A stretch of DNA of 64,000 nt from Sphyrna mokarran (lineage: Eukaryota). Every line of letters starts with the position of its first letter. The stretch's first letter is position 1. Positions 21,722 through 63,865 of the stretch are shown in pieces. The translations under genes and the position numbers were made by a program. Location of the stretch: the NCBI GenBank assembly GCA_024679065.1, contig JAGIQG010000040.1, positions 3,348,001 to 3,412,000 on the forward strand. The letters run 5' to 3'. The notes below the pieces were generated by a model. That model was not told where the DNA came from, ran no database searches, and was given only the letters and a program-made list of their open reading frames with translations.

Positions 21722-22146
21722 GTTTGCAGAGAGCTCCTGGCACAGTTGACAGCAATGAGCTGAGGCATAAATTGGTTCATTCAAGAGTGGCGAAGAAAGT
21801 GAATAACACCTACTACACTGCTGATCTATTCATTACCGACAGCGTCATCAGCTAACATCCAATCATCTTATTCCACCAATGGGATCAAACGCTTTGGATA
21901 TTCAAATCCTATAAGCAGCGCGGGGTGAAAGCAATAAAATGATTTGTTCAACTTTGAACTAAGTACTTAACGAGGAATAAATCAAAAATTGGTACTCTGA
22001 TAGGTTCAGTCTCAAAGGCGTAGACAGAGAGGGAATTCACTGAATATTGTTCTGATAGCAAAGCCTGAGCCTGCAGTGGGAGCTGCTCTCTATGTTACTG
22101 TGTTGCAGCTCATACAGAGGCCTCCGAAGGAAATGAATTCAACAAT

Positions 22147-22531
22147 GAACTCAATAGAAGCACACCATATTTTAGTGAATTATTTAGTGCGCAGAGGGTG
22201 GGGGCGGAACGGGGCTGGGGCTTGATCTGTTGATAGACTTGAGCATTCATCCAGCGATCCCCGTTTAATTGATCATTAGCAATATTCACAGTGTTCTTCT
22301 GATAAACAATAACTCTGCTCAAGGTAATTTATCGCTCAATAGAACTCAATAGAAGCACACCATATTTTAGTGAATTATTTAGTGCGCAGAGGGTGGGGGC
22401 GGAACGGGGCTGGGGCTTGATCTGTTGATAGACTTGAGCATTCATCCAGCGATCCCCGTTTAATTGATCATTAGCAATATTCACAGTGTTCTTCCGATAA
22501 ACAATAACTCTGCTCAAGGTAATTTATCGCT
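22147..22531 (+). repeat. recent 195-bp tandem duplication
   Basis: 22147-22341 and 22342-22531 differ at one base that I could see. Confidence 0.9.
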
Positions 22532-49223: not shown

Positions 49224-49705
49224 ATGGGAATCCTTCTTGTTTTCACCGTGTGTGCCTATTTACCCCGTGAGTACCGATCAAGCTAACCTACATTGTGTGG
49301 ATTGAACATAAAGCTGCCCCAGTCCATCACAATTACAGACAGTGTGTGGGGTGTTAACCCGGTTGTGCGGTTCGGCTCTGCTTGTCCATTAAACTCTATG
49401 TGTTTAATTTGCAGGATTTTTCAGTCAGTCGGTGACACAAAGCCCGGCAGCGGCGACCAAGAAGGAGTGTCAGTCTCTCACCATCACCTGTGTTTTCAAT
49501 AGTGTTTATGATTTACAAAACGGCCATTTCTTCAGACAAACCCAGACCGGGACAGAGCGGGAGCGGATCTCCAGCGGAGGGAGGTTTATTGTGTTGGTGA
49601 ATAAAGCAGAAAAGACATTTTCGCTGGAAATTAGGGGTATGAGAATTGAAGACACCGCCACCTATTACTGTAAAGCTCAGCACTGGTACTACACACATGG
49701 GACTC
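49224..49705 (+). CDS. NARTCRV: NAR-TCR V segment (IgNAR-like V; leader 49224-49266, V exon 49415-49705), cassette 1
   Basis: SVTQSPAAATKKECQSLTITC..RERISSGGRF..KAEKTFSLEI..DTATYYCKA. This is the IgNAR-like short FR2/CDR2-less pattern with a non-canonical FR1 Cys. Confidence 0.92.
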
Positions 49706-49733
49706 CACAGTGGAAGAGAGGAGAACAAATACT
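49706..49733 (+). other. 12-bp-spacer RSS of NAR-TCR V1
   Basis: CACAGTG-GAAGAGAGGAGA-ACAAATACT; identical in cassette 2. Confidence 0.85.
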
Positions 49734-50062
49734 TCAATATTTCTGAACAGACGAAGAAATAATTTTCAGGTCACGGACCACAGCTTGCGAGCTCTTGTTA
49801 CTATCGTTGCAACATGGTTGAATTTCGTTGAAATTTCCTCCATTGAGTTATCTTCCTTTATCGTTTTATTCTATTTATACGAAGTGTCCATCTCCGCCCC
49901 GTTCCTGGGCCATTTTGCCAAGAGCTCAGAATGTCCCAAGGAACAGTTTGTTTCAATAGCAGATATAAAACAATCATTCTTCATTATTGGTCAATAGACC
50001 CTGAATAATTGATAAACACTAATTATTCCGTGTTTTTTTTCCCGGTAGTTTACGTTGCAAGT

Positions 50063-50101
50063 CATTCTTGTATTGGGCTAACTGAGAGTGTTGACACTGT
50101 G
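50063..50101 (-). other. 23-bp-spacer RSS of NAR-TCR J1
   Basis: CATTCTTGT-23-CACTGTG, i.e. CACAGTG-23-ACAAGAATG; identical in cassette 2. Confidence 0.8.
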
Positions 50102-50154
50102 GGGAGAATGGAGATTTACAGATGGGTCTGGGACAGTGGTGAATGTCTCAGCTG
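50102..50154 (+). CDS. NARTCRJ: NAR-TCR J segment, cassette 1
   Basis: GEWRFTDGSGTVVNVSA (IgNAR-like DGxG motif), then a phase-1 donor GTAAGT. Confidence 0.88.
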
Positions 50155-52317: not shown

Positions 52318-52623
52318 AATCCAGTTCATCTGTGTCACAGACTCCGTCTCTCCAAATTTGTGCTGCTGGCGACACCATTACTTTAACCTGCAAATATCAG
52401 GGAGTTTGTCAACACGCACTCTACTGGTACCGTCATTCTCCAGGACAGAGCCCAAAATACCTGCTTAAGGGATACACGTCAGGCGAGGAGAACAAAGAAA
52501 ATGCTGCCGGGGGGAGAATTTCTGCTTCTGTCCACCCAGTCGAAAAAATCAGCTGGTTAAAGATCACCAAGCTGCAACTGAGCGACTCCGCTGTGTATTA
52601 CTGTGCACTGAGTCGGCGTACAG
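52318..52623 (+). CDS. STCRDV: leaderless supporting TCR-delta V, cassette 1
   Basis: Phase-1 acceptor TGCAG matches the J donor and no leader lies upstream. CDR1 Cys (YQGVCQHALYWYR), ..DSAVYYCALSRRT. RSS CACAGTG(52624)-23-ACAAAAACC(52654-52662). Confidence 0.92.
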
Positions 52624-52919
52624 CACAGTGATGCAGAACACGGGGAAAGCTGTACAAAAACCTGAACCTGGCGAGGATTACAGACACAGTGATACAAAAC
52701 ACGGAGAAAACTGTACCATAACCTGGACACGGTGAGGATTTCAGACAGTGATACAGAACACGGGAGCAATACAATAACATAGACATAGTGAGGATTTCAG
52801 ACAGTGATACAGAACAAGGAAAGAACCGTACAGAAACCCAAACATGGTGAGGATTATAGACACAGTGATACAGAATAAGGAGAGAGTTGCACAAAAACTA
52901 AAGATGGTGAGGATTTCAT

Positions 52920-53260
52920 GAAAGTTTGACAACACCGATTTTAAATCCAACCGATTTATTTGATAGTAAATCCACGAGCTTTCGGCCTTTGTGGCCTTCG
53001 TCAGGCGAATGAGATGTTCTGGTCTCCAAAAGCACACATATCAGCACAGACAGTTTACAGATTGCAGATTAGAATGCGAATCCTTACACCTAACCTGCTA
53101 TTCAAGTCTTACAGTGGCTAACAGCAGAGGTTAGAGAAATGTGTATTGTCTCCAGACAGCACAGTAAGTGAGGTTTTTTGCTAACCCAGGCAAGTCATGG
53201 GGGTTACAGATAGTGTGACATGAAGCCAAGATCACTGTTAAGACCGTCCTCATGTGTGTG
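52920..53260 (-). mobile_element. Penelope-like fragment inserted into the RSS array
   Basis: Same terminal sequence as 421-476; bounded by GGATTTCA on both sides; absent from the mirror array. Confidence 0.65.
52970..53010 (-). ncRNA. minimal hammerhead ribozyme motif, all stems pairable
   Basis: Minus strand reads ATTCGC-CTGACGA-A-GGCC ACAAA GGCC-GAAA-GCTC-GTGGAT; stem I is AUUCGC/GUGGAU. Confidence 0.7.
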
Positions 53261-53464
53261 GATTTCAGGCACAGTGATACAGAACACGGAGAGAGCTGTA
53301 CAAAAACCTGGACATGGTGAGGATTTCAGACAGTGATACAGAACACGGGAGCTGTACAATAACCTAGACATAGTGAGGATTATAGACACAAAGATACAAA
53401 AGACGCGGATAGTTGTACAGAAACTTGAACATGGTGAACATTACAAGAATCTGTAATTCATATT

Positions 53465-53742
53465 CAGGCTTTTGTTGAGCTCCCCGTGTTCTGTATCACT
53501 ATGTCTATAATTCTCACAAAGTTCAGGTCTCCGTCTACCTATTTCCCCTGTTTGAAATCACTGTGCCTATAAACTTCACTATATTCAGGGTTCTGTACAG
53601 CTCTCTCCGCATTCTGCATCACAATGTCTACAATTCTCAGTGCGTTCAGGTTTCTGTAAAGCTGTGTCCGTGTACCAAATCGCTGTGCCTGTAATCCTCA
53701 CCATGTTTTTGTACAGCTCTCTCCGTGTTCTGTGTCACTGAG
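53465..53742 (-). repeat. tandem array of 23-RSS units (5 units) behind the pseudo supporting V
   Basis: Includes CACAGCG(53687-53681)-23-ACAGAAACC; converges on the plus-strand array. Confidence 0.85.
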
Positions 53743-54052
53743 CTGTGCGCCAACTCATTTCACATTAAGAAACAGCAGAGTCCCTTAGTTGAAGTTTGGA
53801 GATCTTTAACCGACTCATCTTGACTGAAGAATCGATAGAAGCAGAAATTCTCCCCCTGACAGCATTCGCTTTGTTCTCCTCCCCTAAAGTGGGTGCCTGA
53901 ACTCGGCATTTCGGAGCCTGTCCTGGGGTCTGACGGTACCAGTGCACTGTGTACTGACAGAGACCTGAATATTCATAGATTAAAATAAACGTGTCATTAG
54001 CAGCAGAGGTTTGTACACAGGAACGTGGTGACAGAGGTGAGCTGGAATCTGC
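53743..54052 (-). pseudogene. supporting TCR-delta V pseudogene
   Basis: ..HWYRQTPGQAPK..GEENKANAVRGRISASID..KISKLQLRDSAV* with frameshifts; first heptamer reads CTCAGTG. Confidence 0.85.
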
Positions 54053-57997: not shown

Positions 57998-58304
57998 GTT
58001 CCAGCTCACATGTGTCACCACGTTCCCGTGTACAAACCTCTGCTGCTGATGACACGTTTATTTTAATCTATGAATATTCAGATCTTTCTCAGTACTCAGT
58101 GCATTGGTACCGTCAGACCCCAGGACAGGCTCCGAAATGCCGACTTCAGGACACACTTTAGGGGAGGAGAACAAAGCGAATGCTGTCAGGGGGAGAATTT
58201 CTGCTTCTATCGATTCTTCAGTCGAAATCAGCCGGTTAAGGATCTCCAAACTTCAATTAAGGGACTCTGCTTTTTTTTTTATTGTGAAATGAGTTGATGC
58301 ACAC
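57998..58304 (+). pseudogene. supporting TCR-delta V pseudogene (mirror of 53743-54052)
   Basis: ..GHTLGEENKANAVRGRISASIDSSVEISRLRISKLQLRDSA with frameshifts; heptamer CTCAGTG at 58305. Confidence 0.85.
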
Positions 58305-58590
58305 CTCAGTGACGCAGAACACGGAGAGAGCTGTACAAAAACCTGAGCCTGGTGAGGATTGCAAGCATAGTGATTTGGTACACGGACACAGCTTTACGGA
58401 AACCTGAACGCACTGAGAATTGCAGACATTGTGATGCAGAATGCGGAGAGAGCTGTACAGAACCCTGAATATGGTGAAGTTTACAGGCACAGTGATTTCA
58501 AACAGGGGAAGCAGCTAGACGGAGACCTGAACTTTGTGAGGATTATTTGACATAGCGATACAGAACACGGAGAGCTCAACAAAAGTATGA
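58305..58590 (+). repeat. tandem array of 23-RSS units (5 units)
   Basis: Mirror of 53465-53742. Confidence 0.85.
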
Positions 58591-58614
58591 ATTACAGAGT
58601 TTTGTAATGCTCAC

Positions 58615-59263
58615 CATGTTTGGGTTTCTGTGCAACTATCCGCGTATTTTGTATCGTTGTGTCAATAATCCTGCCCATGTCCAGATTATTGTACAGCTCT
58701 CCCCGTGTTCTGTATTACTGTGTCTGAAATCCTCACCATGTTTAGTTTTTGTACATCTCTCTCTTGTTCTGTTTCATTGTGTCTGAAAGCCTCTCCATGT
58801 CCGAGTTATTGCACAGCTGTCTCCTTGTTTTGTAGCACTGTGTCTGTAATCTTCACCATGTTCAGGTTTCTGTACCGCTGTCTCTGTGTTCTATATCACT
58901 GTCTGAAAACCTCAACATGTCCAAGTTTTTGTACAGCTCTCTCCTTTTTATTTATCACCGCGTTTGTAATCCTCGCCATGTCCGGGTTATTTTACAGCTC
59001 TGCCCGTGTTCTGTATCACTGTGTCTAAAATCCTCGCCATGTCCGGGTTATTTTACAGCTCTCTCCGTGTTCGGTAATACTGTGTCTGTAGTCCTCACCA
59101 TGTTCAGTTTCTGTCGAGCTCCCTCCGTTTTCTGTATCATTGACTGTAATCGTCGTCATGTCCGAATTTTTGTACAGCTCTCTCTTGTTCTATATCACTG
59201 TATCTGAAATCCTCACCACGTCCAGGTTTTTGTACACCTTTCTCCCTGTTTTGCATCACTGTG
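58615..59263 (-). repeat. tandem array of 23-RSS units (~11 units) behind supporting V2
   Basis: Heptamer-like sites at ~59257, 59197, 59138, 59079, 59017, 58956, 58897, 58836, 58775, 58716 and 58655, with a ~60-bp period. Confidence 0.9.
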
Positions 59264-59569
59264 CTGTGCGCCGACTCAGTGCACAGTAATACACAGCGGA
59301 GTCGCTCAGTTGCAGTTTGGAAATCTTTAACCAGCTGATTTTTTCGACTGGGTCGACAAAAACAGAAATTCTCGCTCCGGCAGCATTTTCCTTGTTCTCC
59401 TCGCCTGATGTGTGTCCCTTGAACAGGTATTTTAGGCTCTGTCCTGGAGAGTGACGGTACCAGTAGAGTGTGTGTTGACAAAATCCCGGATATTCGCAAG
59501 TTAAGGTAATGGTGTCGCCAGCAGCATAGGTTTGGAGAGACGGAGTCTGTGAGACAGATGAATTGGATT
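59264..59569 (-). CDS. STCRDV: leaderless supporting TCR-delta V, cassette 2
   Basis: ESNSSVSQTP..TLTCEYPGFCQHTLYWYR..DSAVYYCALSRRT. RSS CACAGTG(59263-59257)-23-ACAAAAACC(59233-59225). Confidence 0.92.
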
Positions 59570-62946: not shown

Positions 62947-62999
62947 CAGCTGAGACAGTCACCACTGTCCCAGACCCATCTGTAAATCTCCATTCTCTC
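62947..62999 (-). CDS. NARTCRJ: NAR-TCR J segment, cassette 2
   Basis: REWRFTDGSGTVVTVSA/GTAAGT. RSS CACAGTG(63000-63006)-23-ACAAGAATG(63030-63038). Confidence 0.88.
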
Positions 63000-63354
63000 C
63001 ACAGTGTCAACACTCTCAGTTAGCCCAATACAAGAATGACTTGCAACGTAAACTACCGGGAAGAAAACACGAAACAACCAGTGTTTATCAATTATTAGGG
63101 GTTTATAGACCAATAATGAAGAATGATTGTTTTATATCTCCCATTGAAACAAAGTGTTCCTTGGGGCATTCTGAACTCTTGGCAAAATGGCCCGGGATTG
63201 CACATTTCGTATAAGTAGAATAAAAAATTAAAGAAGGCTAACTGAATGGAGGAAATTTCAACAAAATTCAACCAGGTTACAACAAAGTAGCAAGAACTCG
63301 CAAGCTATGGTTCGTAAGCTGGAAATTATTGCTTCGTTTGTTTAGAAATATTGA

Positions 63355-63382
63355 AGTATTTGTTCTCCTCTCTTCCACTGTG
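63355..63382 (-). other. 12-bp-spacer RSS of NAR-TCR V2
   Basis: CACAGTG(63382-63376)-12-ACAAATACT(63363-63355). Confidence 0.85.
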
Positions 63383-63865
63383 GTGTTCCGTGTATGTAGT
63401 ACCAGTGCTGAGCTTTACAGTAATAGGTGGCGGAGTCTTCAATTTTCAGATCCCTAATTTCCAGCGAAAATGTCTTTTCTGCTTTATTCACCAACACAAT
63501 AAACCTCCCTCCGCTGGAGATCCGCTCCCGCTCTGTCCCGGTCTGGGTTTGTCTGAAGAAATGGCCGTTTTGTAAATCATAAACACTATTGAAAACACAG
63601 GTGATGGTGAGAGACTGACACTCCTTCTTGGTCGCCGCTGCCGGGCTTTGTGTCACTGACTGACTGAAAAATCCTGAAAATTAAACACACAGAGTTTAAT
63701 GGACAAGCAGAGCCGAACCGCACAATCGGGTTAAAATCCAACACACTGTCCGTAATTGAGATGCAATTGGGGCAGCTTTATGTTCAATTCATGCAATGTG
63801 GGTTAGTTTGAACGGTACTCACGGGGTAAATAGGCACACACGGTGAAAACAAAAAAGATTCCCAT
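63383..63865 (-). CDS. NARTCRV: NAR-TCR V segment (leader 63865-63823, V exon 63673-63383), cassette 2
   Basis: Leader MGIFFVFTVCAYLP/GTGAGT. The V is nearly identical to V1 and ends DSATYYCKAQHWYYIHGT. Confidence 0.92.

Follow-up and report, generated by a model that had tools for sequence, protein, structure and literature searches.

A NAR-TCR cassette of Sphyrna mokarran whose V segment is probably fused in inherited DNA to the 3' part of a D segment

Introduction

How does a NAR-type V segment come to end in a 12-RSS that faces a J directly, with no D between the two? This question is raised by a stretch of 64,000 nucleotides from Sphyrna mokarran (assembly GCA_024679065.1, contig JAGIQG010000040.1, positions 3,348,001 to 3,412,000 of the forward strand), hereafter called the window. 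NAR-TCR, reportedly described by Criscitiello in 2006, is said to be a doubly rearranging TCR-delta of cartilaginous fish. The original prediction, made from the letters of the window, held that D sequence had been fused to V in the germline, leaving a single V(D)-J junction. The analysis presented below leads us to consider it highly probable that the window holds an intact NAR-TCR cassette in which V was fused in inherited DNA to the 3' part of a D, probably by one old RAG-mediated join in a germ cell, and in which one VD-to-J join would be left. Within this reading, a germline join is very likely the origin of the inherited VD-J variant, and RAG is the likely enzyme, as inferred from the precision of the seam.

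Two inverted copies of one NAR-TCR cassette

The window contains two inverted copies of one NAR-TCR cassette, which are 89% identical across 2,512 nt. Their features are as follows.

49224..49266, + strand: leader exon of the NAR-TCR V, copy 1 (MGILLVFTVCAYLP, phase-1 GT donor)
49267-49414, + strand: leader intron, copy 1, present
49415..49695, + strand: V-derived part of the NAR-TCR V exon, copy 1; germline V end KAQHWYY(T), 3' border within about 3 nt either way
49696..49705, + strand: probable remnant of D, in frame with V, copy 1, placed by D profile and alignment; length 10 nt, or as much as 13 nt in case of V trimming
49706..49733, + strand: 12-RSS, copy 1; heptamer CACAGTG at 49706, 12-nt spacer, nonamer ACAAATACT ending at 49733
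49734..50062, no strand: 329-nt spacer, copy 1, with homology to the sequence between D and J in split cassettes; it contains no D
50063..50101, - strand: 23-RSS of the NAR J, copy 1; perfect heptamer, nonamer ACAAGAATG with three mismatches
50102..50154, + strand: NAR-TCR J, copy 1 (GEWRFTDGSGTVVNVSA, phase-1 GT donor)
52318..52623, + strand: leaderless supporting V-delta exon, copy 1; CDR1 Cys, open frame
52624..52915, + strand: perfect 23-RSS of the supporting V, then a 61-bp tandem array of 23-RSS-like repeats
63823..63865, - strand: leader exon, copy 2 (inverted)
63383..63673, - strand: NAR-TCR V with fused D remnant (likely), copy 2; end KAQHWYYIHGT
63355..63382, - strand: 12-RSS, copy 2, identical to that of copy 1
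63000..63038, + strand: 23-RSS of the NAR J, copy 2, from the RSS scan
62947..62999, - strand: NAR-TCR J, copy 2
59264..59569, - strand: leaderless supporting V-delta exon, copy 2; perfect 23-RSS from 59263, RSS array to about 58606

According to the available text of PMC1845163, NAR-TCR is marked by a leader, a Cys in the a-b loop, the lack of the WYRK Trp and a leaderless supporting V-delta with a Cys in CDR1. All of these marks are present here. The NAR V of copy 1 has its leader at 49224-49266, the a-b loop Cys in KKECQ (within KKECQSLTITC), GHFFRQ without Trp at the WYRK site and its second Cys codon at 49669-49671. The best 24 PDB matches of the window NAR V are all VNAR-type single domains, with a top E value of 1e-18. 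The supporting V (52318-52623) carries its CDR1 Cys in YQGVCQH, has a splice phase compatible with the J, and is preceded by no leader-like exon within 500 nt upstream. The two V domains carry separate recombination signals, a 12/23 pair in the NAR module and, for the supporting V, a 23-RSS. Neither copy shows damage to its leader, splice sites, frames, two heptamers or supporting V. Downstream on the strand of copy 1, at a distance of about 450-470 kb, there is a TCR C exon together with five J motifs and a D that bears 12/23 signals, and the supporting V therefore has delta partners; for copy 2, an inversion would be needed to bring them within reach. Protein searches for expressed NAR-TCR sequences returned only gene models and ORFs, with no named NAR-TCR cDNA product.

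The window has further features of its own. The 61-bp arrays of 23-RSS-like repeats behind the supporting Vs span 52619-52915, 53251-53388 and 58606-59263, with 5, 2 and 11 copies respectively. Decayed copies of the supporting V, about 71% identical, lie at 53480-54052 and 58033-58576, one beside each intact exon and in the opposite orientation. A 195-bp tandem duplication at 22143-22531 contains two orphan 12-RSS-like sites (22287 and 22482), each preceded by a GC-rich promoter-like stretch, and no V, D or J was recognised there. Six kilobases past the window end (L051), a third, broken VD-joined cassette (L022) is found without its own supporting V before copy 2; its V contains a stop, and its leader donor and J heptamer are defective.

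A long V end, a 12-RSS and no D

Both NAR-type Vs do run 34 nt beyond the second Cys, as had been claimed, with KAQHWYYTHGT plus one nucleotide in copy 1 and KAQHWYYIHGT in copy 2. The other Vs had been described as shorter and as bearing 22/23 spacers; the nine RSS-bearing ones do have 22/23 spacers and end 11 nt (seven) or 19 nt (two) after the Cys. The excess of about 15-23 nt that this comparison gives has nevertheless to be revised, since the proper comparators are the split NAR-TCR Vs of this genome, which extend 16-24 nt past the Cys and reduce the excess to 10-18 nt. The predicted 12-RSS on both NAR-type Vs, facing the 23-RSS of J some 330 bp away, is found with an exact spacer of 329 nt in copy 1. 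Scored against the consensus RSS, the window holds four 12-RSS matches at two mismatches or fewer, against 0.08 expected, and none of 100 shuffled sequences reaches four; chance does not explain the 12-RSS.

A D in the spacer would require an inverted 23-RSS followed by a forward 12-RSS. In copy 1, the RSS scan of 49734-50062 yields four heptamer-like sites, all with at least five nonamer mismatches. In the spacer of copy 2, two of six sites stand at 2+3 mismatches, both with 12-nt spacers, and no 23-RSS is found. A cryptic D in either spacer is ruled out by this lack of an inverted 23-RSS or of any credible D, as the original prediction had it. The window cassette thus shows neither the 22-RSS on V nor the free, RSS-flanked D that define the split type, and the long V ends with a 12-RSS and without a D are confirmed as a real feature of the locus. 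The J nonamer of copy 1 has three mismatches, one of them within the A-tract, whereas that of the split cassettes is perfect.

NAR-TCR join states in the genome

A genome search with the window V gave 31 matches, of which 30 were treated as loci, 28 of NAR-TCR type and two of IgNAR type; as 150 of 203 candidates were scored, the locus counts are lower bounds. At least 14 of the 28 NAR-TCR loci are in the split state, a V with a 22-RSS followed by a 16-nt D between two 12-RSSs. An intact V and a J with its 23-RSS are found in 13 of these, the V of L029 being truncated. The VD-J state of the window is represented by at least six loci, three of them intact (the window copies L001 and L002, and L003) and three broken (L022, L026/L033 and L027/L036). 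In the distant L003, the V, the RSSs, the J and the supporting V are all intact. At least seven loci (L004-L007 and L009-L011) are fully joined, some on small contigs and perhaps redundant. At least one, L021, is joined between D and J, its V with a 22-RSS facing a 12-RSS that leads directly into D-J sequence.

The locus L021 (C994:4004436-4004714, - strand) combines a free V, a germline D-J join behind the 5' 12-RSS of D, and an intact supporting V. The fully joined V-D-J exons (L004-L007 and L009-L011; L057-L058 on C1271) carry a CDR3 Cys. Four such exons stand in tandem on C1271, upstream of one supporting V, and models of the great white and the basking shark (P0006, P0010, P0013, P0021) have CDR3s that resemble those of the fully joined loci.

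The supporting domain is affected as well. Among ten supporting Vs examined (13 were given and three were unmatched by the script), four end in the 3' 23-RSS of D-delta and its D-J spacer, and these, L064, L066, L067 and L068, lie about 300 nt from a J. They represent a second, independent germline V-D join. Thirteen TCR C-exon matches were found in the genome (C994 at 10.4-12.3 Mb, C47, C180 and C1271), and most cassettes of the split and fully joined states are followed by a J and a C exon of their own, no more than about 25 kb downstream; the arrangement is that of TCR miniclusters and not of one translocon. A metagenome scan for related loci gave 194 pattern matches and no confirmed case.

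The signal and the spacer follow those of D

The question of whether the end of the window V corresponds to that of a V or of a D was addressed by comparing its flank with the two spacers of split cassettes. The window spacer was compared with four of the 13 split cassettes, with z scores taken against 200 shuffles. It is 73-76% identical to their D-J spacers over aligned columns (z 8.4-10.0), against z -1.0 to 1.5 for the V-D spacers. Extended to five joined copies and 20 comparisons, the result is the same, with z 6.1-11.1 for the D-J spacer versus -1.6 to 1.5 for the V-D spacer. The window 12-RSS matches the 3' RSS of the split D at 21 of 28 nt, with eight of nine in the nonamer and the variant nonamer ACAAATAC included, versus 16 of 28 nt for the 5' RSS of D. 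The locus L021 gives the converse picture, the 160 nt before its 12-RSS matching the region that precedes D (z 23-25) and not that which precedes J (z about 0).

Since the 12-RSS and the whole spacer are homologous to what follows D in split cassettes of the same genome, V is therefore best explained as fused to D in the germline, in agreement with the original prediction. The V 22-RSS, the V-D spacer of about 350 nt and the D 5' 12-RSS of split cassettes are absent from the window cassette. It retains the 3' 12-RSS of D, the spacer between D and J, and the J itself, and neither the leader intron nor the reading frame has been lost. The V appears to occupy the place of D, with the loss of the sequence formerly between them. 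With the inner RSS pair and the V-D spacer gone, a single V(D)-J junction would be left, again as predicted.

What is V and what is D in the 34-nt extension

Attribution of the extension itself leads to a correction. The V of L021 extends 23 nt past the Cys and ends in KFQYWDI, and split-type V ends elsewhere, known at the protein level only, read KARYWYYT in a bamboo shark (P0005) and KAQYWYW in Mustelus (P0016). The residues that follow these two ends match, at the protein level, the translated 22-RSS of the split cassettes of this genome. The assignment of the aromatic HWYY to D is rejected, since split-type V ends already bear WYY or WYW; V itself most likely encodes KAQHWYY(T), which leaves about 10-13 nt for D. 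The proposal that 49681-49733 consists of a D and its 3' RSS is accordingly not supported, as only the last 10-13 nt of the extension look derived from D. The breakpoints then fall within a few nucleotides of both lost heptamers, with a V part of 21-24 nt and a likely D part of 10-13 of 16 nt.

A D profile was built from six of the at least 14 D cores and applied to the last 16 nt of the joined ends, against shuffled sequences. The five joined ends, which are related to one another and offer a short match, gave p 0.0015 (copy 1), 0.019, 0.003, 0.011 and, for copy 2, 0.11, and five control V ends gave p 0.06-0.91, the lowest being that of L021. Given the modest strength of this match and the relatedness of the ends, the case for a V-D fusion rests on the homology of the RSS and spacer.

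Common origin of the join

The 34-nt end is found in five of the six VD-J copies, and a broken one has 32 nt. Identity among the six is 68-88% over the region (79% for L036, over a short match). In an unrooted tree, five VD-J copies fall on one side of a branch supported at 97/96 with J and intron, and at 99/99 with V added. The fork is unresolved in the tree of V alone, made without L036 (truncated) and L029 (truncated V), where 4% of the bootstrap trees bring the VD-J copies together. Of 79 NAR V ends obtained elsewhere, three share the VD-J end and read on into the 12-RSS, namely the Mustelus asterias models P0007 and P0092 and the record P0001, which are automatic gene models or ORFs compared at the protein level. 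The VD join is inherited and, with its leader intron kept, is not a retrocopy, and the six copies probably stem from one old V-D join.

Selection, gene conversion and functional state

Selection on the junction peptide had been proposed because, of the four positions at which the window copies differ within the extension, three are synonymous (CAT/CAC, GGG/GGA, ACT/ACA). These counts are right, and the inference drawn from them is weak. The synonymous excess has p 0.019 over 11 codons and 0.059 over the four junction codons, in a test chosen after seeing the data, and it is not repeated in five other pairs (p 0.19-0.79). Purifying selection on the whole V is better evidence. Between the two window copies and L003, the V has a pN/pS of 0.36-0.38 (p 0.0007 and 0.0016), and such values among copies that share the join point to function after it.

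The two window copies give a pN/pS of 1.1 between themselves, on only five changes. Their V codons 6-73 (49432-49635) are identical, as are the 12-RSS and the J RSS, versus 89% identity over the block, and gene conversion between the inverted copies is likely. Since these identical codons suggest conversion, the window copies are poor witnesses of selection.

An unlikely alternative is that the join is real and that the cassettes are weakly rearranging or decaying relics, whose intact look is kept by this conversion. The three mismatches of the J nonamer and the breakage of three of the six VD-J copies argue against function, and the same reading would account for the stretch of identical V codons within the 2.5-kb block and for the pN/pS of 1.1 with its five changes; joined H-chain genes of the horn shark, moreover, were not found expressed according to the available part of PMC2193156. 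Decay is, however, hard to reconcile with the undamaged leaders, splice sites, frames, heptamers and supporting Vs of the two window copies, with the intact V, RSSs, J and supporting V of L003, with the low pN/pS against this locus, or with the open orthologous models of Mustelus.

Origin of the join

For the fusion of V to D, a RAG coding joint formed in a germ cell would remove at once the V 22-RSS, the V-D spacer and the D 5' 12-RSS. Germline activity of RAG in sharks has been argued for light chains (PMC2193156, available part). The equally precise D-J, V-D-J and supporting V-D-delta joins of the same genome support this origin. An ordinary deletion, through microhomology repair or unequal crossing-over with selection of the in-frame outcome, would give the same end product, and neither a P (hairpin) nor an N signature is demonstrable at the seam. 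It is nonetheless improbable, because both ends lie within a few nucleotides of the heptamers across an interval of about 430 nt with no RSS remnant, and because at least three other joins of this genome are just as precise (D-J in L021, V-D-J in L004-L007 and L009-L011, and V-D-delta in four of ten supporting Vs).

The direction of the change may also be questioned. If a D-less V-12RSS/23RSS-J cassette were ancestral, the split cassettes could derive from the insertion of a signal-ended fragment into the V end, cutting off a D. This would account for the same RSS and spacer homology, and the trees are unrooted. It is very improbable all the same: the IgNAR-type loci L030 and L028 of this genome have a V with a 22-RSS followed by Ds with 12-RSSs, and V ends read into a 22-RSS in bamboo sharks and skates (P0005, P0053, P0064, P0073). 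The VD-J, V-DJ and VDJ states, in addition, each miss a different interval, and all the intervals are present only in a split ancestor; no duplicated target is apparent by eye between split V ends and D starts. Finally, somatic rearrangement in lymphocytes or mis-assembly of the genome sequence, for which there is no specific indication, can be set aside, because the seam is common to six diverged copies (68-88% identity) and to gene models of another species.

Comparison with known systems

The inherited VD-J cassette shares with NAR-TCR, as given in the available text of PMC1845163, the leader, the IgNAR-like V, the J, the supporting V-delta and separate signals for each domain; it differs in that its V bears the 3' 12-RSS of D with no free D, so that the NAR domain is left with one join and not two. 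Partly germline-joined VD-J and VD-DJ clusters are standard for shark IgH in the available parts of PMC5192425 and PMC4279169. To judge from these, the same precise loss of an inner RSS pair, with frame and introns kept and split and joined forms side by side, is seen there in immunoglobulin clusters and here in a T-cell receptor cassette. In the nurse shark, type III IgNAR shows a D1-D2 fusion, a restricted CDR3 and neonatal expression (PMC4622739, available part). It is likewise a partial germline join in a NAR-type cluster that leaves fewer joins, but on this description D1 is joined to D2 in an antibody gene with three joins left, whereas the window joins V to D in a TCR with one left in the NAR domain.

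Germline joins in TCR genes have been described in other vertebrates. The part available of PMC7615758 (2023) names TCR-mu as the sole germline-joined TCR case and attributes V-mu-j to retrotransposition; a V-J germline join of newt TRD (PMC12698447) and a claim of germline joins in catfish TCR (PMC6170632) appear in the parts available of these papers. As there described, marsupial V-mu-j, newt TRD and catfish TCR have in common with the window pre-assembled TCR segments, but theirs are complete joins. V-mu-j moreover concerns the supporting domain, whereas the join described here is partial, lies in the antigen-binding domain and keeps its introns.

A further comparison is offered by the great white gene LOC121270133, to which Table S1 of PMC12227049 (2025) gives the label 'NARTCR V(gj)V(gi)V'. 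We read 'gj' as germline-joined, as that paper uses it for IgM, and on this label complete germline joins in NAR-TCR are already on record. The great white protein P0006, which has the same automatic name, shows joined-type CDR3s like those of L004. The great white gene has a complete V-D-J join under a table label without analysis; the window cassette is half-joined and is predicted to rearrange. No VD-J entry is marked in the whole of Table S1. A literature search, whose coverage did not extend to the primary NAR-TCR descriptions and which does not establish absence from print, found no VD-J NAR-TCR. Joined NAR-TCR is not mentioned in the available parts of PMC6795676, PMC2275272, PMC3149040, PMC5931798 and PMC3457774, nor does the term NAR-TCR occur in the one supplement checked of the elephant shark genome paper (PMC3964593). 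The surprise is limited, since germline joining is an established mechanism in shark Ig and the 2025 supplement already bears a label for a fully joined NAR-TCR V.

Predicted assembly and significance

During somatic rearrangement, the 12-RSS borne by the V would pair with the J 23-RSS across the 329-nt spacer, and the single junction so formed would undergo trimming and N addition; either trimming or N addition would be needed, because a blunt VD-J join is out of frame. In the resulting NAR CDR3, the start would be fixed and encoded by V (KAQHWYY), WRF would come from J, and diversity would be limited to the single junction. The NAR J would then splice to the supporting V, which would use its 23-RSS to join the D with 12/23 signals and the Js that lie downstream at about 450 kb. 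The predicted product is a three-domain delta chain made by three somatic joins rather than four, with a narrower, aromatic-rich tip loop. By analogy with joined shark Ig genes, the VD-J cassette may be favoured early in life.

A broader proposal may be put forward tentatively. RAG may have acted repeatedly on the germline of shark TCR genes and left all the join states of NAR-TCR (V-D-J, VD-J, V-DJ, VDJ and V-D-delta), and the VD-J state may represent a semi-invariant receptor of ancient origin, maintained by selection, whose CDR3 begins with a fixed aromatic stretch and which marks an innate-like, early subset of gamma-delta T cells common to sharks.

The presence of split, half-joined and fully joined NAR-TCR in one shark genome shows T-cell receptors to be shaped by germline joining in the same way as shark antibodies. 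Such a genome further offers a natural series of joins, in which the benefit of joining in advance, be it earlier expression, narrower CDR3s or a fixed ligand, can be tested.
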